From: Escherichia phage L14
Strand: one strand, 5' to 3'
Sequence record: OQ992558.1
DNA: 64,000 nucleotides
Under the pieces are notes generated by a model. That model made no database searches, was not told where the DNA came from, and saw only the letters and a list, made by a program, of their open reading frames with translations. Positions 2,947 through 57,252 of the stretch are shown here, in pieces. A program made the position numbers and the translations under genes. The stretch's first letter is position 1; the number at the start of each line of letters is the position of its first letter.

Positions 2947-3183
2947 TTATTTACCTATTACAGTTTTAATATGAGTTGTTCCACGTTCTTTAAGAGTGGA
3001 AAGTAATTTTTGGCATTTTTCTAAATCAGATTTCCAACTATGTGGTCTATCAATACAAACCCAGTTTGACTTATAATACTGCTTCCATTTAGAGAAAAAA
3101 TACTTCTTATACTCTACAGCAAATGAAATGTTCTCGTTGGAATAAGAACTAATTGCTGTGAGTTGTACCAAACGAAATTTCAT
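2947..3183 (-). CDS. hypothetical protein (78 aa), 31.2-like position
   Basis: ORF abutting cd. Confidence 0.45.
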   Translation of the reverse strand: MKFRLVQLTAISSYSNENISFAVEYKKYFFSKWKQYYKSNWVCIDRPHSWKSDLEKCQKLLSTLKERGTTHIKTVIGK

Positions 3184-3764
3184 TATTCACCACAGAATTC
3201 GTTGATATTTTCCCAGTTTAACTTATTCAAGTTTTTCTTAGGAACATTAAACACTTCAATACCTGCATTTCGCAGAATATCATCCCAGCCAGGTTTATTT
3301 TTATCGTATGTTTCACAATAAACCAGCTTTTTAATTCCAGATTGAGCTATTGCTTTTGCACAATCTGGGCAAGGAGAAAGTGTTACATACATAGTAGCAC
3401 CTTCAATTGAAGAACCGTTTCGTGCAGCAAACAAAATAGCATTTAGTTCAGCATGAATTTCATTTTTAGACGACCATTCAGAGTGCGCGCTACGATGTTC
3501 TTTCGCCAATACAAAACGATCAGTTGAACCAAACGATACACATTCAGGCTTATGACCTTGAATGATAGTATGTTTAGGCTTATTCAGCAACCAACCTTGC
3601 TCAGCAGCATAATCACAGCAGTTCACACCACCTGCAGGTGAACCATTATATCCAGTAGAAATAATACGTCCATTCTTTTCAATTACTGCTCCTACTTTCC
3701 AGGAGCAACATTTTGATTCTTGTGATACTAAATATGCAATTTGAAGTACTGTACTCGCTTTCAT
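3183..3764 (-). CDS. cd: dCMP deaminase (193 aa)
   Basis: Zinc-dependent deaminase motifs HAE...PCxxC (HAELNAI...SPCPDCAKA) visible; length equals T4 Cd. Confidence 0.9.
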   Translation of the reverse strand: MKASTVLQIAYLVSQESKCCSWKVGAVIEKNGRIISTGYNGSPAGGVNCCDYAAEQGWLLNKPKHTIIQGHKPECVSFGSTDRFVLAKEHRSAHSEWSSKNEIHAELNAILFAARNGSSIEGATMYVTLSPCPDCAKAIAQSGIKKLVYCETYDKNKPGWDDILRNAGIEVFNVPKKNLNKLNWENINEFCGE

Positions 3765-13001: not shown

Positions 13002-13318
13002 AAGTCCTCAACTTGAAAATCGTCTTTAAACAATCGGTTAACTATATGAGCTATTATATCACCATGACACGGCTTTGGTTTACATGTGCATCCTAGCCTC
13101 ATTCCACGTAAAGGCTCTAAATGTGCTTTAGTTATTTCTCCGGATTTAATTCGACGTATAAAATCTTTTTTGAATAATTCAATGGCAGCCTCCCGGCTGC
13201 CAGCATCTTTACCGACGTAATTTCCCCAAAATGTACCACGGTGAATATTAACATCAAAGTCGGATTTATATTTATTCACTACCTGGCATAGACGGCCCGC
13301 GCGGTGATAATTCGTCAT
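12992..13318 (-). CDS. hypothetical protein (108 aa) with C-x-C-x4-CHGD motif (DUF4326-like)
   Basis: Motif [12 protein letters not shown] in translation; family assignment is from recall. Confidence 0.45.
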
Positions 13319-13535
13319 ATTGTTTTTCCGTTAAAACAGTAATATCATAGTAACAATCAGAAGAAGTTTTAACTGTAGAAATTTTATTATCAAAATACTC
13401 ACGAGTCATTTTATGAGTATAATATTTTTTGCCATAAATGATAATAGGCTGATTTGGTCCTGGAACTTCTAACTCACTTGGGTTAGGAAGTGTAAAAAGA
13501 ACTACACCAGAAGTATCTTTAAATCGTAAAATCAT
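13272..13535 (-). CDS. hypothetical protein (87 aa)
   Basis: ORF downstream of td; overlaps next ORF by 47 nt in another frame. Confidence 0.4.
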
Positions 13536-13558
13536 AAATCCTCACAATTAAATTAAAA

Positions 13559-13870
13559 TTACACCGCCATTTTTCCTTTCAAGACGCCGTGGGACTGATA
13601 ATCTTTGAGAACGAAATCTTTAGGCCTGAGTTTAAGAATGTATTCCAATTGTTCTTTAGTAGAAAGATAGCGGAATTTATAAGGCAATCCGCCTATTACC
13701 AGTTCACAAAGCTCTTTAGGTTCACGACGCAAAATTTCTTTACATTGTTCTACGTGATTCATATAGATATGAGTATTACCACCGGAAAATATCAAATCTC
13801 CCGGAATAAGATTACACATCTTAGCTACAATATGAACTAACGTAGCATATGATGCAATATTAAATGGAAG
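13559..13870 (-). CDS. td: thymidylate synthase, exon 2 (103 aa + stop)
   Basis: Begins CTT CCA TTT (LPFNIASY...) directly after intron 3' terminal G; in frame with exon 1. Confidence 0.9.
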   Translation of the reverse strand, partial: LPFNIASYATLVHIVAKMCNLIPGDLIFSGGNTHIYMNHVEQCKEILRREPKELCELVIGGLPYKFRYLSTKEQLEYILKLRPKDFVLKDYQSHGVLKGKMAV

Positions 13871-14190
13871 CATTATGTTCAGATAAGGTCGTTAATCTTA
13901 CCCCGGAATTATATCCAGCTGCATGTCACCATGCAGATCAGACTATATCTTCAACTTGTTAAAGCAAGTTGTCTATCGTTTCGAGTCACTTGACCCTACT
14001 CCCCAAAGGGATAGTCGTTAGGCATTTATGTAGAACCAATTCCATTTATCAGATTTTACACGGTAAGTAACTAATCCTGATGAAATTATTAAAGGGTAGT
14101 CCTACAATTTAGCACGGGATTGTCTACTAGAGAGGTCCCCCGTTTAGATAGATTACAAGTATAAGTCACCTTATACCTAGGCCTCAATTA
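13871..14190 (-). other. group I self-splicing intron in td, 320 nt, no internal ORF
   Basis: 5' end UAAUUGAGGCCUAGGUAUAAGGUG..., 3' end ...UAACGACCUUAUCUGAACAUAAUG match recalled T4 td intron ends; exon 1 ends in U, intron ends in G. Confidence 0.85.
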
Positions 14191-14739
14191 ACCCAAGAAA
14201 ACATCTACACTGCGTTGATACCATTGTAAATCAAGATAACCATTACGCACATTAAACTGATAGAACATATGACAAGGTGGTAATGCCATATATTTAAGTT
14301 CAGCTGGATTCCACGCAGAAACAATTTGACGCCTATCACTTGGTAGTTTTTTAATACGATCAATAACTTCTATAATTTGGTCTACACCGCCAAAATCGCG
14401 CCACTGTTTTCCATAAATTGGGCCAAGTTCACCACTATGGTATCCTAAATCTTTTGCCTGATTTTCGTAATTTTCATCCCAAACTGTTTTGCCTTGGATT
14501 AACGAATCATGCTGAATTAATCGTAAATCATTGACATTTGTGCTTCCTGATAAAAACCAAAGTAGCTCAGCAATGCAAGCTTTCCAGGCGAGCTTCTTAG
14601 TTGTTACCGCAGGAAAACCTTTAGTTAAATCCCAGCGTAATTTAGTACCGAATAAAGCAATTGTTCCTGTGCCTGTTCGGTCATCGGTTTCATAGCCATT
14701 TTCAAAAATGTCTTTAATTAAATCTTGGTATTGTTTCAT
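14191..14739 (-). CDS. td: thymidylate synthase, exon 1 (183 aa)
   Basis: TS active-site region ...LPPCHMFYQF...; ORF hits stop UAA exactly at intron 5' end. Confidence 0.9.
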
Positions 14740-14784
14740 TTAGTACCTTATATAAATTATAATACATTTTATGAAGCTAAATAA

Positions 14785-15132
14785 TCAATACGGTTTAGCA
14801 TCAAATTTTCTCTCAATTTCAGGTGTGAAATATAATTCTTTACCACGTTTGGAAAAGCGACCAATAATATGATAATTATTCTCATCAAACGTGATATTAC
14901 CAATATCCATAGCTTTCAACCAAATATCGATATTTCTATCCAGCTTTATGTCAAAATTCCAATACGGAGAACTATTACCGAAAATACTGCAAGCGGATTC
15001 AGTGAAACAACTGCTATAAATCTTGTCTTTAGGAACTACTAATTGATAGACACCTTTAATAAACTGAGGACCCTGCCACTTTGGCTGTTTCGTGTCTTTT
15101 TCTAATAGAATAGGGTAATAATTAAAATTCAT
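14785..15132 (-). CDS. hypothetical protein (115 aa) inserted between frd and td
   Basis: Clean ORF filling a ~410-bp gap where T4 frd and td directly overlap (recalled). Confidence 0.5.
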   Translation of the reverse strand: MNFNYYPILLEKDTKQPKWQGPQFIKGVYQLVVPKDKIYSSCFTESACSIFGNSSPYWNFDIKLDRNIDIWLKAMDIGNITFDENNYHIIGRFSKRGKELYFTPEIERKFDAKPY

Positions 15133-15151
15133 ATTTCCGCCACGCGTTATT

Positions 15152-15978
<827 letters not shown>

Positions 15979-17497: not shown

Positions 17498-18406
17498 TTA
17501 AAGGTCATTCAAAAGGTCATCCAGGTCTGTGTCATCAGCACTAGATGAACTGCCAGAGCTTGAGCTCATAAAATCATCTTCAGTTTTTGTTTTGAAGTCA
17601 TCAACATTGAATGCATCCAAATCATCAGCAACTTTATCAGCTTTCTTAGCGGCAGTTGCAGCGGCACCACCCATTGCAGCAGTTCCCATAACTTGACTGA
17701 ACTTAGTGCTCAGTTCTTCAAATGATTTGAATTTATCTTTAGAAGTCATTTCAGAAAGGTCAACCATTTGTTCGAACAGTTCTTTCTGGAAAGATTCATC
17801 GTCAATGTTTGGAATCGCAGATTGATTCAGGAATTTAGATTCGTCGTAGTTACTAAATCCAGAAACCTGTTTAACTTTCAGTACAAAGTTAGCACCTTCC
17901 CACGGACAAGTTACATCAACCGGAGTTTCACCCATTTCAACATCAACCGCAATCATCGCGTTGATTTTATCCCAGATTTTCTTACCGAAACGATATTTAA
18001 ATACTTTACCTTCATTTTCTGGAGCAGCTGGGTCTTTTACAACAAGAATATTAGCCCAGTAAGAAGTTTTACGTTTAACAAGACTGTACTCTTTATTGTC
18101 AGTGTTGTACAGATCATTTTTACTGATGTACTGACATACTGGACAAGAATCGTAATCACCGTGGGTAGATGAACAGTTTTCAATATACCATTTACCATTT
18201 TTCTTGAAACCGTGATTTACAAGAATTGCGAATGGTGCTTGTTCATCATTTTTAGACGGAAGAAAACGAATTACTGCTTGACCGTTACCCGCATTGTCGA
18301 GTTTCAGTTTCCACTCGCCTTTATCTTCAGAAGAAAAACCACCTTTATTTCCAGCCAGTTTAGCCATTTGTGCAGCGAGTTCAGCAGTAGATTTACGTTT
18401 AAACAT
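17498..18406 (-). CDS. 32: gp32 single-stranded DNA-binding protein (302 aa)
   Basis: N-terminus [17 protein letters not shown]... and acidic C-terminal tail match recalled T4 gp32. Confidence 0.93.
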
Positions 18407-50497: not shown

Positions 50498-51244
50498 TTA
50501 TCCTCGGATAAGTTTAAAAATTGAACAATTTAGCGGGTATCCTCTTTTCAGTTTAAGTTTATCAATAAAAGACAAGTTTTGATACCGCTCTACACCTTGA
50601 ATAATTTTATCACACATATCATATTGCATTTCTGCTTCTGACAACTTTTTCACAGTTTTCCAATCCGAGCCTTTAAGAAGAACGTTCAATTTAACAACTT
50701 CAGCGCCTTCTGCTATACGAGAACCATCAATACGAGCTTTAAGTGCTATAATTCTTAGCTTAATGTCAGAGGTCTGTTTTGATTTAGAAAGCTGAGAAAT
50801 GTGTTCAATTCGGTTTTCACGTTTTTTCTGTATAGCTTTAATTTGATTATAGGTCTTTTTGATTTTAGCCCATTTCTTTTCATCTAAATTTAGTTTATGA
50901 ACTTTTTTCGCAGATGAACGACCAATTCGCAAAGCAAATAAATCACGCTTTTCAATCAACTCTTCTAAAGTATAATCAGAACGAAATGTATTATACTTTT
51001 TCTTTACTGCAATAACATTCCCTTTAATGTATCCAACGTTATTATCAAAACGTTCTAATGATAATTTCTCTCCTTCAATACGATTATCAAAAGGTTCTCC
51101 TGAGTAAGCGCAAACTTTCTGATCTAAAATATTCTTAATATAATTGAAGTCTAAGTTAAAATCTTTAGAACGTCTTTTTGCAGATGCCTGAGTATGCTCT
51201 AGACGACGTTTAATTTTACGAATTTGGTTATTAGATAGCTTCAT
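50498..51244 (-). CDS. srd: Srd-like protein (248 aa)
   Basis: Size and position between dda and modA; basic/coiled-coil. Confidence 0.55.
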   Translation of the reverse strand: MKLSNNQIRKIKRRLEHTQASAKRRSKDFNLDFNYIKNILDQKVCAYSGEPFDNRIEGEKLSLERFDNNVGYIKGNVIAVKKKYNTFRSDYTLEELIEKRDLFALRIGRSSAKKVHKLNLDEKKWAKIKKTYNQIKAIQKKRENRIEHISQLSKSKQTSDIKLRIIALKARIDGSRIAEGAEVVKLNVLLKGSDWKTVKKLSEAEMQYDMCDKIIQGVERYQNLSFIDKLKLKRGYPLNCSIFKLIRG

Positions 51245-51280
51245 ATTTTTCTCACATCTTACGGACGGTTAACTACTTAT

Positions 51281-51310
51281 ACTATAACATTTTTACTTCA
51301 GCTTGTAAAC
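51281..51310 (-). promoter_or_regulatory. T4-early-type promoter upstream of srd
   Basis: plus gtaaac 51305-51310, actata 51281-51286. Confidence 0.4.
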
Positions 51311-51321
51311 AACTTTATGTA

Positions 51322-51350
51322 AAAATGCTTTAAAACTTTCATGGTATAAT
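51322..51350 (+). promoter_or_regulatory. MotA-box middle-promoter-like element on plus strand (aaaTGCTTTA, 12 nt, TATAAT)
   Basis: TGCTTTA at 51326-51332, TATAAT at 51345-51350; orientation opposite to flanking genes. Confidence 0.35.
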
Positions 51351-51367
51351 GAATCTAAGTCCTTCCA

Positions 51368-51970
51368 TTATAGATTAAATCCTTCAAAATCAAGAGTATA
51401 GATAGTGTATGTTGAATACTTTTTGTACTCATATCTATCTGCAATTCTAAATACACTTCCAGCTGGTATCATTACTTCTTGTTCATCTGAAACTAATTCC
51501 ATATTACGATAACGATGGCTATCTGGAAACTTAAAACTTGGACTATATTCTTTACAACGTAGAGCTTTTATAGCATACTCCTGGAAATTAAATACCATAG
51601 GAGCTTTGAATTCAAAAATAACTTGTGTGTTATACTCTAAACCGGAAGCAAAATGTAGAGCTATATTTTTATCATATGAAGCTGATACTACTTTATCAAA
51701 TGTAATAATATCAATTCCTTGATTTAATACTTGCTTAGTCTCAGCTGGAACACCTCTCCAAAGAGGTTTATCGTTTGGTTCCAAACGAGATTTGATTATT
51801 TCATTTAACCAAGTATGGTCATCTGGTTTATTAGTAATACAATGAATTAAAAGTTCAATTTCAGATAAATTAAACCCTTCAGAAAGTAATTCTTCACGAA
51901 TAGAAGCACGCACCGATGCATCCATTGATTTTATTTTAAAATCTTTTAGTTGCATTACTGAGTATTTCAT
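51368..51970 (-). CDS. modA: ADP-ribosyltransferase ModA (200 aa)
   Basis: R-S-E ART motifs (LWRG, S-x-S, EQEVMIP); length as T4 ModA. Confidence 0.75.
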   Translation of the reverse strand: MKYSVMQLKDFKIKSMDASVRASIREELLSEGFNLSEIELLIHCITNKPDDHTWLNEIIKSRLEPNDKPLWRGVPAETKQVLNQGIDIITFDKVVSASYDKNIALHFASGLEYNTQVIFEFKAPMVFNFQEYAIKALRCKEYSPSFKFPDSHRYRNMELVSDEQEVMIPAGSVFRIADRYEYKKYSTYTIYTLDFEGFNL

Positions 51971-52590
51971 TCAACTACCTCAATATCATAAACTTTAAAT
52001 GTTCCAAATGAATCGTGTAATTTTTCTTTTGAAATAGAAGTTATTCTATACTTTCCAATTGGAATCATCCATTCTTGTTCACGCACAATCATCATTAAGT
52101 TATCAGTACGCTCTGAATCTAGCCCATCAGTATCTTCATACGTGTACTTAAACTCAGTATTAGGAGAAGAAAGTATAATATCGCTGATATGGTCAGAATA
52201 ATTAAAAGCTTTATCAGTTTTTAAGCGAAATATTATTTCAGTGAAATACTCAACATAAGAAAAACCACATGCTGTGTGCAAACTAGTAGTAAATGAATCT
52301 ACCCTATTCGTTGAAAACACTTCTCCAACTTGTAAATCTTTAATGAGTTCTTTTGTCGATTTTGATATACCACGATATAACTGATAAGGTGATTTAGTTA
52401 AATGCTTTTTAACGATTTTATTCAACTGCCGATGAAGAGCTTCATTCTTTTTAGCTTCCATACATTGCCAAAGAACTGACTGCTCAAAGTCAGTAAATTT
52501 TTCACAGACCTTTTTATACATATCATATTGAAAATCAACGCTTTCAGCTTTTATAGATAACTGTTCAACATCTGCAAGATTAATAATCAT
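51967..52590 (-). CDS. modB: ADP-ribosyltransferase ModB (207 aa)
   Basis: R-S-E ART motifs (LYRG, STN, EQEWMIP); paralogue of modA. Confidence 0.75.
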   Translation of the reverse strand: MIINLADVEQLSIKAESVDFQYDMYKKVCEKFTDFEQSVLWQCMEAKKNEALHRQLNKIVKKHLTKSPYQLYRGISKSTKELIKDLQVGEVFSTNRVDSFTTSLHTACGFSYVEYFTEIIFRLKTDKAFNYSDHISDIILSSPNTEFKYTYEDTDGLDSERTDNLMMIVREQEWMIPIGKYRITSISKEKLHDSFGTFKVYDIEVVE

Positions 52591-52616
52591 GATAGCCTCC
52601 GTATACTTCAGAAGCT

Positions 52617-52646
52617 ATCATATCATCGTTAGAAAGGAAAGTAAAC
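52617..52646 (-). promoter_or_regulatory. T4-early-type promoter upstream of modB
   Basis: plus gtaaac 52641-52646, atcata 52617-52622. Confidence 0.4.
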
Positions 52647-52657
52647 AACTTTTTGAA

Positions 52658-52840
52658 TTATTTTGCCCAAGGAGCCCAAGGCGGAGGGTCAAGATGGTAT
52701 GAAGCTAGTTCTTCTAGAAGAGCATCTGGGGCTTCAATTCCATAATTCTGTAATACTATACGGTACTCTTTCTTATAATCACTAGAATCATTCTGGATAT
52801 TCGTAGAATGATTATCTTCTAACATCTCAAATAAATCCAT
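52658..52840 (-). CDS. hypothetical protein (60 aa)
   Basis: ORF in modB-soc interval. Confidence 0.4.
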   Translation of the reverse strand: MDLFEMLEDNHSTNIQNDSSDYKKEYRIVLQNYGIEAPDALLEELASYHLDPPPWAPWAK

Positions 52841-52848
52841 ACTAATTC

Positions 52849-53319
52849 CTAGCGATAAAAACCAAATTGACGATTAGCTTCAATAATCTTTCTTTCTTCT
52901 TCGGACATTCTCCAGCGTAGTCCAACATCAAAATGAGCCCAGACCATCTTAACAAATGCATTTATATCTTTAATATCTTCAATAATGAATGATTTACTTT
53001 TAGAAGGTTGACTCGCTAATTTAACTTTATCGTCTTCAAACAGGTCAAAAAGACCATATTCATGGGCTCTTTTATAGCCTTTAATAGTTAAAGCTTCAGA
53101 AGAAGAAAAAGGTGAATCAGTATTCTGCAAAATATCTTCAGTATGCTTTATAATTAGAATAACATTTTCTGGATATTTTCTTTCTTTTATATCTTTAATT
53201 AAAAAATCCGGATTTTCTGCTAAAGGAATAATTAATGAGCATTTTTTACCAAGAGTATTTACTGATTTACCTTCTTTAGACATGAATTCTACTGAATAAT
53301 GTTTTGCTACTTCAATCAT
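52849..53319 (-). CDS. hypothetical protein (156 aa)
   Basis: ORF in modB-soc interval. Confidence 0.45.
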
Positions 53320-53472
53320 GTGATTTCCTTTTGCCTACTAATGGACCATCGGGAATTTTGTTTTCCTGGATATATTTCTCATTTTCTTCCATCATTTTAC
53401 TACCGATTTTAAGAAGCAAATCCATTGCTTCATTTGCTTTAGCTTTAGCCTCTTCTAATATCATATCTCTGT

Positions 53473-53676
53473 TCACGATTTATCCCCATAGATGTCTCTC
53501 ATTAATTTAAGCGCTGAGCGTTCTAATTTCTTTTCTTTCTCAGCACTAATCATTGATTTCATCCATTCTTCCGATTCGTTCTGCATTTCTTTATTTGCTT
53601 GTTCAACCCAACCATCATCAATATACATCGAGTTTGGTCTATTGAACCATTCAAGCATCTTCTTCAGAGCTTTCAT
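53473..53676 (-). CDS. hypothetical protein (67 aa)
   Basis: ORF in modB-soc interval. Confidence 0.4.
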
Positions 53677-54148
53677 TTGTTTTACCTAAAACAACAGTAG
53701 GAGCATCATCAAATTCATGAATTTTGAGCAAATTTGGATGTAAACTATTCCATACAGAAGAAATAAAGTATGATAAAGCATCTTCACTCGCAATTATAAA
53801 TTTATTTCCTTTATCTATTTTCCAACTATATACTGAATCGTACGAATAAAAAGATAAAGGTTTATTATTATATTGTTCTGCGCTAACATTAATGTATTCT
53901 GATTTAGTAAATGCTTCAATTGCTCTAAACGGAATATTTGGTACAGTTTCAATAATACCAATCTTTTTAAGTTTTATTTCAGCATCTTCTGGAACTGGCA
54001 TTGAAACGAAATTTTCTACGAGATACATTGGGTCACAATAACCCTTATCAATCATTACTGCTACGGTAATTGGAACGTCTTTAGCAAACGACATACTATT
54101 ACTGCTAATATACATTTCAAACAAAATCGCTTCCATAATTTTCCTCAA
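53651..54148 (-). CDS. hypothetical protein (165 aa)
   Basis: ORF in modB-soc interval. Confidence 0.45.
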
Positions 54149-54486
54149 TCACAAGATGTAGATGAACAACTAGAATCACAAGAACTTCCACATGAATCGC
54201 CTTCCCATACATGAACAGGAACATTAGTATCATATGAATCAGAACTAGACTGTGTATTCTGCGTATTAGATGATGTAGTAGGTGTTGACCAGCGCCAAGG
54301 ATTTTTATAATATTCTTGGGCTTCTTCATAAGTCATAGTAACTGCTTCTACTGTTCCATCTCCCATATAAACATACTCAACTACAGTTAAAGGAAGGTAG
54401 TCATTTGAAATAGGAACTACACCTTCTCCGGGAGTTGTAGAGAAAAAATCCGTAAAGAAACTTTTAAACCAATTAAAGATAAACAT
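54145..54486 (-). CDS. hypothetical protein (113 aa) with Ser/Thr-rich linker and C-terminal Cys repeats
   Basis: C-terminus [18 protein letters not shown] read in translation. Confidence 0.45.
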
Positions 54487-54692
54487 TACAAAAAGCCTCT
54501 TTTGAATTCAACTTGCTTCTCGCCATAATCATATCGAATCTCTGCATTAAATTCAACAGAACCATCTGCGTACATCATAAATGAATGCACAACAACTTCT
54601 GTAGACCATGGCTGTAGTTCATATTTCTTCATTACATGCCGTGAAATGATAATATCTAAATCTTCATTTGGTTTAATCCAGCGATTTAACAT
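54486..54692 (-). CDS. hypothetical protein (68 aa)
   Basis: ORF, ATGA-type overlap. Confidence 0.4.
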   Translation of the reverse strand: MLNRWIKPNEDLDIIISRHVMKKYELQPWSTEVVVHSFMMYADGSVEFNAEIRYDYGEKQVEFKRGFL

Positions 54693-54756
54693 AGTGCTCT
54701 CCTCTATAAGATAATTCTATTATACCATACTCATTTTGGAAAGTAAACCGGTAAAA

Positions 54757-54782
54757 TGAAAAAAGGACTCCCGAAGGAGTCC
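54757..54782 (-). terminator. rho-independent terminator after soc; GGACUCC-UUCG-GGAGUCC + U-tract
   Basis: Identical hairpin to the one at 1404-1421; 8 nt downstream of soc stop. Confidence 0.7.
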
Positions 54783-54790
54783 TTGAATTA

Positions 54791-55027
54791 TTAACCACCT
54801 ATTTCTGTAGGCGTAAACATTGCAGCATTCTTAGTTTTCCAAGTTGTTGCATCGGAAACTACATCAGAATAAGCTGCTTTTTCTGACGGAAAGATTTGAT
54901 AATGAGAATCTGCAATACGGTGTTCATTTGAATATACATCAAATGCTACAGAAACTTCCATACCTTTAACTTCTTTGCCTTCACCTGCTGGATGAGTAAA
55001 GGTCTTGATGTTAACGAAACCACCCAT
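54791..55027 (-). CDS. soc: small outer capsid protein Soc (78 aa)
   Basis: VNIKTF...YQ-FPSEKAAYS motif matches recalled T4 Soc. Confidence 0.75.
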   Translation of the reverse strand: MGGFVNIKTFTHPAGEGKEVKGMEVSVAFDVYSNEHRIADSHYQIFPSEKAAYSDVVSDATTWKTKNAAMFTPTEIGG

Positions 55028-55058
55028 AATAAACTCCTTTATTGTTTAATTACAGGTG

Positions 55059-55066
55059 TATTTATA
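55059..55066 (-). promoter_or_regulatory. T4 late promoter box TATAAATA for soc
   Basis: plus tatttata = minus TATAAATA, ~31 nt upstream of soc ATG. Confidence 0.6.
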
Positions 55067-55240
55067 TCAGTCTTCAATGAAAACTTGTGCCAGGAATTCG
55101 TGTTCATCTTGAATTTGTTTATATAAAGCCATTACAGCATTTATATTAGATCTATCTACTTTAAGTTGATAGGCATACCACTCGTATAAATTAATTAAAG
55201 CTTTTTGTCGTCTAATAAATTCTTCTTTGGATATTTTCAT
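55067..55240 (-). CDS. hypothetical protein (57 aa)
   Basis: Hand-translated; ATGA overlap with upstream ORF; below ORF-track cut-off. Confidence 0.4.
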   Translation of the reverse strand: MKISKEEFIRRQKALINLYEWYAYQLKVDRSNINAVMALYKQIQDEHEFLAQVFIED

Positions 55241-55437
55241 TTTGAATGCTCTATAATTAATTTTAAGGCTTCTTTACTGACAAAAATTTCATCAAGACCT
55301 TCTTCTACACCCCAATCAACTACACGAAGCTGATTAGATAAGAGCTCGTATGTGAGCTCCTTGTCATAATTTTTAAATAGCTGGTCAATACGTTTCTTGT
55401 GGGCTTTCTTAAGCTGGCGTTTATTTAAACGAGCCAT
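55237..55437 (-). CDS. hypothetical protein (66 aa)
   Basis: ORF between 56 and soc. Confidence 0.45.
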   Translation of the reverse strand: MARLNKRQLKKAHKKRIDQLFKNYDKELTYELLSNQLRVVDWGVEEGLDEIFVSKEALKLIIEHSK

Positions 55438-55955
55438 TAATAACCTCGGTCTTGACGAGCGAAGTTTTCAGCATTTTTCAGATAATAAAGTTTAAAGATT
55501 TCTTCAGCCGTAAGACCGAGGCCTTGGAACATGTTCAGAACGAAATGAAGAATATCAATCATTTCGAATTTAATTTCCAACTGGTCTTGTGGAGACAAAT
55601 CAGTAATCAGAGTTTCACGTCGTTCACCATGTTGAGCTTTCCAAGGCTTCCATACAGCAGATGCATCTTTTTCACCATTGCTCATACCACCAAGAGAAGT
55701 CAATAGTTCGCGGAATTCATCATCAATATAATCTTTCTGATTACGCAGCCAATCAACAACTTCACCCGCAGTAGCCAAATCATCAGGATGACGGTTATAT
55801 TCAGGTTTATCTTTAGCTAAACGAACCTGCAGAGATTTCTGCATATCAAGCATAACTTGCAACGGGTCTTTTTCATCACCGAGAATATCCCAGTATTCAT
55901 TTTGAGCTTTATCAGCGCCTTCAATCAGTTGTGAACATTCATTAAAGTATGCCAT
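55437..55955 (-). CDS. 56: dCTP pyrophosphatase, MazG-like (172 aa; start at MAYFNE)
   Basis: Start matches recalled T4 gp56 N-terminus; ORF-track N-terminal extension is hydrophobic and likely spurious. Confidence 0.8.
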   Translation of the reverse strand: MAYFNECSQLIEGADKAQNEYWDILGDEKDPLQVMLDMQKSLQVRLAKDKPEYNRHPDDLATAGEVVDWLRNQKDYIDDEFRELLTSLGGMSNGEKDASAVWKPWKAQHGERRETLITDLSPQDQLEIKFEMIDILHFVLNMFQGLGLTAEEIFKLYYLKNAENFARQDRGY

Positions 55956-56026
55956 TATTTTTCCTTTCAATTCATGGGTTAGTAGATTAATTATACAATA
56001 AATATATAAAGCAATAAGGAGGACAT

Positions 56027-56227
56027 ATGGTACAAAAATTAATGGCACTTGTTAATGCCATCAAAGGTAATAAAAAGCGTATAGCTTTTACTATTTCTGC
56101 TATGGTAGGAATTTTACTCTGGAACTTTATTTTATCACCAATTGCAATTGCGCATGGTGTTAATATTCCAGTAGTTACTCTTGATACATTCGTAGATCTA
56201 GCATTTGCTTTAGTTGGGTTAATTTAA
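56027..56227 (+). CDS. small membrane protein (66 aa) on plus strand
   Basis: Strong RBS AAGGAGG 7 nt upstream of ATG; two hydrophobic segments; divergent from gene 56. Confidence 0.45.
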   Translation: MVQKLMALVNAIKGNKKRIAFTISAMVGILLWNFILSPIAIAHGVNIPVVTLDTFVDLAFALVGLI

Positions 56228-57252
56228 ATCTTGGCATATTTAGATAACCGCATTTTAGCCATTAACCCCTGGGCAATATTATTTTTCATATATTCCATAA
56301 TTTGTTCAGGGGTTGCACCTTCCTTTCTAATCATATCATTAACATCTTTTGATTTCCAGGGAGATTTATCCCAAAACATAACCCTTTCTCCTGCATCAAC
56401 TAATTTAGTCATTCGCTTGATAGTGTCAGGGTGACGAGGTTCATTATCTAAAACCCACACTCGTCTATCTTTAAATGGAACAACTTCTAGGTCTAATTGA
56501 CCACCCGTAATAGCTATACCATTTTCAATAAAAAGTGAATCTATAGGTCCTTCTAGAACATATACATCACCATCTTTAACTCGTTCGACTCCATATATTT
56601 TTGTTGCCTCAGGATAAGCTTTGATGGTGATATATTTTTGAGGAGCATCTTTCTTTAATGCACGTCCTTGAAAAGACTCAGCTTTTCCGTTAGCATTATA
56701 AATTGGAATAACAAGACGAGGCTCAGGTGTTTCCTTTTTATATGTTCCTGGAGCTATACTATTAACTAATTTAGGCCATTCAGTTGTAAACCAAAGATAT
56801 TTCCATTTATCCTTTGGAATACAACGAGCTTTTACATATTTTATAATTGGATGGTCTTCCGCCAGTTTATCTAATCGAACACATGACGGAAGAGATTTAA
56901 TTATTTTCTTCTCAGGTTGTTTAGGAAGTTCTTTAGGTTTTTCTACTGGACGACTTTTACCTTTTTCTTTTCTTATTTCAAAGATATACTCACGATATAA
57001 ATCAGGTTCAAACTCCTTTAAATATATTCCGATTGGCGCATGATAGTTACAGTTATAACAATGAATATTTCCTTCATTATTATCACCATAATACCATCCA
57101 CGAGCTTTATTCTGGTCGGTTTTTGAATCTCCACAAACAGGGCATCTAAACCGCAATTTAAAAGTTGAACTATTATTTACTTGTGTGAATTTAGGTAAAT
57201 GAGCTAATGCACGATACGCAAACTCATTATCAATCCAAGGTATTGATGACAT
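56224..57252 (-). CDS. 61: gp61 DNA primase (342 aa)
   Basis: Zinc-ribbon CPVCGDS...CYNC and TOPRIM region; matches recalled T4 gp61. Confidence 0.9.
   Translation of the reverse strand: MSSIPWIDNEFAYRALAHLPKFTQVNNSSTFKLRFRCPVCGDSKTDQNKARGWYYGDNNEGNIHCYNCNYHAPIGIYLKEFEPDLYREYIFEIRKEKGKSRPVEKPKELPKQPEKKIIKSLPSCVRLDKLAEDHPIIKYVKARCIPKDKWKYLWFTTEWPKLVNSIAPGTYKKETPEPRLVIPIYNANGKAESFQGRALKKDAPQKYITIKAYPEATKIYGVERVKDGDVYVLEGPIDSLFIENGIAITGGQLDLEVVPFKDRRVWVLDNEPRHPDTIKRMTKLVDAGERVMFWDKSPWKSKDVNDMIRKEGATPEQIMEYMKNNIAQGLMAKMRLSKYAKI

Follow-up and report, generated by a model that had tools for sequence, protein, structure and literature searches.

In phage T4, the interval from modB to soc holds seven small genes (modA.2, modA.3, modA.4, srh, mrh, mrh.1 and mrh.2; NC_000866, positions 13198-15232). 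Published phenotypes, at the genetic level, exist for just two of them, mrh and srh. Both modulate late transcription when rpoH is mutated or when cells are heat-shocked (42 C), and T4 can dispense with the region in which they lie (PMC6070864, PMC6024815). According to the accounts given in PMC6070864 and PMC8076793, rpoH mutants are reported to allow T4 late expression and growth again once mrh is lost (Frazier and Mosig 1990, Mosig et al. 1998), a phenotype that concerns the T4 allele, to which the Mrh protein described below is 79% identical. Recombinant Mrh of T4 is a soluble protein whose elution indicates a megadalton complex, and a 3.3 A cryo-EM structure of it has been mentioned as 'data not shown' (PMC8076793). 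In a time-resolved T4 transcriptome the mRNAs of all seven genes were classed as early (PMC9697503, supplementary files 4 and 6), and six of the seven proteins were detected and given a temporal class in the corresponding proteome, Mrh.1 having none (PMC9697503). For ModA.2, ModA.3, ModA.4, Mrh.1 and Mrh.2, the literature that we searched offered no function, the matches being unrelated. The closest functional analogies for Srh and Mrh are two further small early proteins of the same T4 early region, Srd and AsiA. Srd carries the annotation of an anti-sigma factor and has been postulated to act as a decoy of sigma-70 and sigma-S. AsiA is needed for T4 middle transcription.

Here, we describe the gene identities, synteny, selection and operon anatomy of the corresponding interval in Escherichia phage L14 (OQ992558.1), as well as the paralogy of two of its products, Mrh and ModA.3. 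The analysed stretch of DNA, hereafter the window, is 64,000 nucleotides long and the interval occupies its positions 52,658 to 54,692. The window is part of a Tequatrovirus (T4-like) genome. In our assessment this interval is, with high confidence, the accessory block that T-even phages conserve between modB and soc, and it probably forms one early transcription unit. The cluster is thus one that is already known, and an ordinary, annotated T-even early accessory operon is its best-supported description. The original prediction had reported six minus-strand open reading frames (ORFs) of 60-165 aa and at least one below 60 aa, flanked by modB and soc, and this description is accurate: the minus strand carries ORFs of 60, 156, 54, 67, 165, 113 and 68 aa, and both flanking genes are what they were taken to be (Table 1). 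The 165-aa ORF opens at a TTG at 54148, inside the mrh.1 stop region, and shrinks to 161 aa, the T4 length of Mrh, when counted from the ATG at 54136; since this ATG is preceded by a GAGGA ribosome-binding site (RBS), we regard the TTG as a merely mechanical start.

Table 1. Features of the modB-soc interval in the window. Gene lengths in nucleotides are those of T4, matched exactly in the window; identities are at the amino-acid level and to the T4 product; pN/pS values are pairwise, among five to seven Tequatroviruses.
Feature	Position	Strand	Length (aa)	Length (nt)	Identity to T4	pN/pS	Evidence and remarks
modB	51967-52590				95.7%	0.20	flanking gene; pN/pS given as comparison
hairpin over modB RBS and ATG	52622-52588	-					hairpin scan; downstream of second promoter
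predicted second early-type promoter, before modB	52617-52645	-					promoter scan; GTTTACT, 17 nt spacer, TATGAT
modA.2 orthologue	52658-52840	-	60	183	98%	0.09	phrog_1647, 2e-31; acidic product
modA.3 orthologue	52849-53319	-	156	471	94%	0.24	Pfam T4_MRH, PF24070, 2e-38
modA.4 orthologue	53312-53476	-	54	165	94%	0.11	phrog_2681, 2e-36; GTG start
srh orthologue	53473-53676	-	67	204	98.5%	0.07	phrog_2441, 1e-40; postulated sigma-32 decoy
mrh orthologue	53651-54136	-	161	486	79%	0.35	Pfam T4_MRH, PF24070, 2e-43; named 'modulator of rpoH'
mrh.1 orthologue	54145-54486	-	113	342	99%	0.07	Pfam DUF7206, PF23836, 2e-29
mrh.2 orthologue	54486-54692	-	68	207	98.5%	0.04	phrog_1873, 1e-36; RBS AGAGGAG
predicted T4-early-type sigma-70 promoter	54719-54747	-					promoter scan; GTTTACT, 17 nt spacer, TGGTATAAT
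intrinsic terminator 3' of soc	54763-54784	-					terminator scan and sequence reading; AAGGACTCCTTCGGGAGTCCTT then T-run
soc	54791-55027						flanking gene; Pfam Soc, 4e-19

What did not hold is the statement that these ORFs match no T4 protein, as T4 has seven genes of equal length and in equal order between modB and soc, and the products encoded in the window are 77-99% identical to theirs in global alignments. The ORFs can therefore not be called unassigned, since each of them has a clear orthologue at the same position in T4; a published function, the other half of what was to refute the original prediction, exists for mrh and srh and for no other member. The sensitive profile and structure searches suggested along with the prediction returned a specific PHROG for each protein, at 1e-31 or better, and a Pfam family for three of them, and a PDB sequence search of six proteins (all but ModA.4) gave nothing with an E value below 0.9. 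The window and T4 share not only gene order, strand, lengths, overlaps and the modB and soc flanks, but also the arrangement of terminator and early promoter upstream of the block. They differ in the Mrh allele, which is divergent here and nearer to the T6 type (93% at the nucleotide level), in the start codon of modA.4, which is ATG in T4 and GTG here, in the neighbouring soc, which is a JS98-like allele here, and in the genes segF and dam, which are absent here.

The block is a common possession of this group of phages. It is covered to at least 80% in 493-497 phage records, and about 500 sequenced Tequatrovirus genomes carry all of it. Over most of the slightly larger region 52400-55100, several hundred T4-like phages of Escherichia, Shigella and Yersinia reach 90% identity or more. 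The nearest sequenced relative, Salmonella phage UAB_60 (OL656107), has 99.6% nucleotide identity over 52400-55100, and five of its seven genes (modA.2, srh, mrh, mrh.1 and mrh.2) are 100% identical to those of the window at the nucleotide level. Outside Tequatrovirus, Dhakavirus and Gaprivervirus keep the order soc - mrh.2 - mrh.1 - srh - modA.4 - modA.3 - modA.2 - modB. Gelderlandvirus has retained clear srh, Mrh-family and modA.2 genes between soc and the mod genes, and Jiaodavirus has retained at least modA.2.

The seven ORFs are real genes and not chance reading frames, because their pN/pS values lie between 0.04 and 0.35 in pairwise comparisons among five to seven Tequatroviruses (the L14 window, T4, T6, G8, YwIITB1, SYGD1 and UAB_60), because they match PHROG and Pfam families, and because they lie close together, their starts coupled or overlapping. 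Judged by these ratios, the whole block is under purifying selection. The seven proteins range from acidic to neutral, none of them has a transmembrane-like segment, and family searches found no enzyme-like domain among them.

The layout of genes and signals suggests one compact early operon that would run on into modB and modA. Upstream, the terminator of soc has a GC-rich hairpin, and phage G8 has a terminator annotated in the corresponding place. Just past it lies the best promoter match of the region, with 10 of 12 positions and an extended -10, and the mrh.2 ATG follows 27 nt downstream; we infer that this promoter drives the block in L14. Within the block, the mrh.2 stop and the mrh.1 start overlap as TAATG, the srh start precedes the mrh stop by 26 nt (a 3'-end overlap), the srh stop is overlapped by the GTG of modA.4, and modA.4 and modA.3 overlap by 8 nt. 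The second early-type promoter and the hairpin sit between modA.2 and modB, where they may have a role ahead of modB. Scanning 52658-54692 for MotA boxes gave no middle promoter on the minus strand, and an Rfam search found no RNA family in 51000-56500. The proposal that the interval belongs to an early host-takeover neighbourhood is supported by the T4-type early promoter, by the early class of the T4 orthologue mRNAs and by the neighbouring genes srd, modA and modB.

Two products of the block, Mrh and ModA.3, belong to one protein family. Both match PF24070 ('T4 MRH-like') over profile positions 1-143 of 144, Mrh with 148.3 bits and ModA.3 with 132.1 bits, far above the gathering cutoff of 24.4 bits. 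In the family alignment P49, P69-F70 and W129 are invariant and Y81 is nearly so. The two proteins are about 22-24% identical to each other, and we therefore regard them as old, distant paralogues. An exhaustive profile search with both against 1.84 billion representative proteins returned 13 clusters only and gave no sign of Mrh-family members outside T4-like phages, while the related predicted structures in BFVD all come from T4-like phages (of Enterobacter, Klebsiella and, by name, Salmonella STP4-a, Citrobacter Moon, Yersinia TG1, Pectobacterium PM2 and Erwinia Cronus) and are all uncharacterised. A sequence search of a PDB copy found no chain resembling Mrh, and nothing in the PDB matches the fold predicted for the family.

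The distribution of the two copies is uneven. JS98 (Dhakavirus) and RZ (Gaprivervirus) have one Mrh-family gene, at the modA.3 position, and none between srh and mrh.1, and CGG4-1 (Gelderlandvirus) likewise has a single Mrh-family gene. In pKp20 (Jiaodavirus), a 486-nt gene adjoins modA.2 at the same position and is a candidate member of the family. The ModA.3-type copy is thus, from these gene contents, the widespread one, and mrh is a Tequatrovirus-specific extra copy, given that JS98, RZ and CGG4-1 carry one family gene each. The mrh gene is also the most divergent of the block: its product is 79% identical to T4 Mrh, the neighbouring products are 94-99% identical to their T4 counterparts, and pN/pS is highest for mrh. 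The modA.3 gene, which is intact in the window, is inactivated in some isolates, by a frameshift in UAB_60 (a 1-nt gap, with the gene annotated as two fragments) and by a premature stop in YwIITB1.

For Srh, the postulated role as a decoy of sigma-32 can be compared with what the sequences hold. In BLASTP, Srh is 32% identical to E. coli RpoH over 38 aa (RpoH 244-279, region 4.2; E 7e-4), and a Smith-Waterman alignment of Srh with RpoH 243-279 scores 58, where shuffled sequences average 30.7 (sd 5.1) and one of 1000 shuffles reaches 58. The same shuffle test gave no signal with RpoD or RpoS, and the JS98 orthologue of Srh shows the same pattern in the comparison with the three sigma factors. 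No sigma-32 similarity was found in the Gaprivervirus and Gelderlandvirus orthologues, the similarity vanishes in a profile-profile comparison (hhalign probability 1%), and most residues that never vary within the Srh family lie outside the sigma-like set. A single-sequence AF2 model of limited reliability (pLDDT 81.6, pTM 0.44) has a short helix at residues 3-11 and a long helix at 21-63, and in this model, within the same limits, no sigma region-4 helix-turn-helix is predicted. At the level of sequence, the likeness to sigma-32 is short, specific to sigma-32 and not family-wide, and the decoy role is plausible but weak. The analogy with Srd and AsiA is likewise one of function, as we found no sequence relationship of either protein to Srh or Mrh, and Srh is modelled as one long helix.

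ModA.2 is the most widespread member of the block, with tblastn matches in 992 phage records from many T4-like genera, the hosts of which include Escherichia, Klebsiella, Enterobacter, Yersinia, Salmonella and Serratia. Its N-terminal MDLF and C-terminal DPPPW(A/S)PW are invariant in six Tevenvirinae genera and its acidic middle varies, a combination that suggests two short binding motifs. In ModA.4, a core of 33 residues is identical in JS98. Mrh.1 matches PF23836 (DUF7206) over its full length with 102.5 bits (cutoff 25.6) and consists of an aromatic N-terminus, a Ser/Thr-rich linker and a Cys/Ser-rich acidic C-terminal tail, with this tail and the segments PGEG.VPI and EYVYMGDG being conserved. 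The mrh.2 gene was found in 742 phage records and has two alleles within Tequatrovirus that are about 60% identical. A hairpin motif '..M..DG(S/T)VE' that seemed common to Mrh.1 and Mrh.2 was rejected, as BLASTP gave no alignment of the two. Searches of the block's proteins against PADLOC, which models defence proteins, and NCBIfam produced sub-threshold noise only, including a BrxC match to Mrh.2 (E 0.0066 over 40 residues) and a phosphatase match (E 0.03).

Taken as an early accessory operon, the block would be expressed in the following way. Host RNA polymerase would most likely start at the early promoter just past the soc terminator, in the first minutes of infection, and would transcribe the genes for Mrh.2, Mrh.1, Mrh, Srh, ModA.4, ModA.3 and ModA.2 in this order, before continuing into modB and modA, which encode ADP-ribosyltransferases. 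Small and for the most part acidic, the proteins would be made from reading frames that overlap or are coupled in translation. Mrh and Srh would then, as T4 genetics indicates, adjust the phage's use of host RNA polymerase when sigma-32 is limiting or induced. For the block as a whole, we infer that it most likely acts by stoichiometric binding of host transcription and heat-shock proteins and not enzymatically. The experimental support for such binding concerns Mrh and Srh and is genetic in kind, the mechanism of these two coming from old genetics, and any role for ModA.2, ModA.3, ModA.4, Mrh.1 and Mrh.2 would be an extrapolation.

A different account would make one or more of modA.2, modA.3, modA.4, mrh.1, mrh.2 and mrh an anti-defence factor directed against bacterial immunity, as the original prediction had suggested, with the rpoH phenotype of mrh as a side effect. 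Early, small, acidic and dispensable proteins have the usual profile of phage inhibitors, and several features of the individual genes would suit such a role: mrh evolves fastest and is a lineage-specific extra copy, absent from JS98; mrh.2 occurs within Tequatrovirus in its two dissimilar alleles; and modA.3 has lost its frame or been cut short in some isolates, which suggests that it is useful under certain conditions. However, our searches, which included the defence-protein models of PADLOC, showed no sequence or fold likeness of the proteins to any characterised inhibitor, the literature searched assigns no such role to the block's genes, and most of the genes are highly conserved and not diversifying, and we consider this account unlikely.

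Two further readings have next to no standing in comparison with that of a known early operon. The view that the ORFs are novel, specific to L14 and without T4 counterparts, for which one could cite the earlier failure to match them by eye and the modest T4 identity of Mrh (79%, the lowest of the block), is refuted because each ORF pairs in position, length and sequence with one gene of T4 modA.2-mrh.2, and because near-identical blocks occur in about 500 genomes. Equally improbable is that modA.2, modA.3 and modA.4 encode periplasmic binding proteins of a molybdate ABC transporter, as the label 'molybdenum ABC transporter, periplasmic molybdenum-binding protein ModA' in many GenBank phage records would have it: the products, with 60, 156 and 54 aa, are far below the size of periplasmic binding proteins and have no substrate-binding-protein family match in Pfam or NCBIfam, which together rule this identity out. 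The label is a name collision, since modA in T4 stands for the Mod ADP-ribosyltransferase, and our analysis thereby exposes a widely propagated annotation error in the ModA.x proteins.

As a discovery of genes the cluster carries little weight, because it has been part of the T4 annotation since the 1990s and is present in hundreds of sequenced relatives. New in this analysis are the paralogy of Mrh and ModA.3, the status of mrh as an extra copy, the limits of the similarity between Srh and sigma-32, and the motifs of ModA.2. The block marks a well-defined gap in the biology of T-even phages, consisting of five conserved and expressed early proteins and of an Mrh/ModA.3 fold without a solved relative. 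There is some chance, which we rate as small, that the five uncharacterised proteins and the Mrh/ModA.3 fold hide a new class of inhibitors of host factors or of immunity. Its conserved ends make ModA.2 the strongest candidate for an adaptor with two motifs, which could tether or block a conserved enterobacterial protein, and the Mrh family may represent a protein of new structure that builds a megadalton assembly and has been duplicated specifically in Tequatrovirus.

In many phage records among the GenBank relatives of window positions 52658-53476, modA.2, modA.3 and modA.4 carry the label 'molybdenum ABC transporter, periplasmic molybdenum-binding protein ModA', an error arising from a collision of gene names and spread by RAST-style annotation; some RefSeq records also call these small genes 'prohead core scaffold' or 'terminase'. 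modA.3 is intact in the window, unlike its copies in two other phages: in Salmonella phage UAB_60 (OL656107, our L002; positions 2950-3420), the nearest sequenced relative, it is broken by a 1-nt indel, and in phage YwIITB1 (our L005; positions 868-1320) a premature stop truncates it six codons short of its end. These lesions could reflect either real decay or sequencing errors. For modA.4, the start codon is GTG in the window and in UAB_60 but ATG in T4 and the other relatives, and four codons after the GTG there is an ATG in the same frame.

Coordinates and further features of the surrounding region are collected in the table below. Immediately upstream of the modB hairpin there is an early-type promoter, and the hairpin may control modB translation. 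In the srd-modA spacer, the strong MotA-type match TGCTTTAAAACTTTCATGGTATAAT is directed into modA, in antisense orientation.

Features of the region around the modB-soc block (window coordinates)
Feature	Position	Strand	Description
MotA box + extended -10	51326-51350	+	strong match TGCTTTAAAACTTTCATGGTATAAT; srd-modA spacer
modB hairpin	52588-52622	-	14 bp; covers modB ribosome-binding site and start codon
modA.4	53312-53476	-	GTG start
soc	54791-55027	-	flanked by T4-like genes
segF slot	55067-55437	-	two small ORFs: 57 aa (phrog_9053), 66 aa (phrog_5782)
gene 56 (dCTPase), mechanical ORF	55437-56048	-	GTG start, 203 aa
MotA-type site	55990-56013	-	upstream of gene 56, T4 oriA region
hydrophobic 66-aa ORF	56027-56227	+	lies between gene 56 and gene 61, on the opposite strand

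Neither the T4 homing endonuclease gene segF nor the DNA adenine methylase gene dam had a tblastn match within the whole 64-kb window, and gene 61 comes almost directly after gene 56. For gene 56 itself, alignment with T4 gp56 (171 aa) points to the ATG at about 55952 (MAYFNEC...) as the true start, and over the full global alignment the two proteins share only about 63% identity, far below the values for neighbouring genes. The hydrophobic ORF has a 97% conserved counterpart in T4 (T4 coordinates about 17738-17935), which carries no annotation in the T4 reference genome (NC_000866); in UAB_60 the ORF is annotated as hypothetical.

The soc gene also departs from T4, as its product is 43% identical to T4 Soc versus 77% to Soc of the Dhakavirus phage JS98, whereas the flanking genes on both sides are 94-99% T4-like. 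Because Soc is thus nearer to JS98 while both flanks remain T4-like, the locus looks like the product of a mosaic allele exchange.
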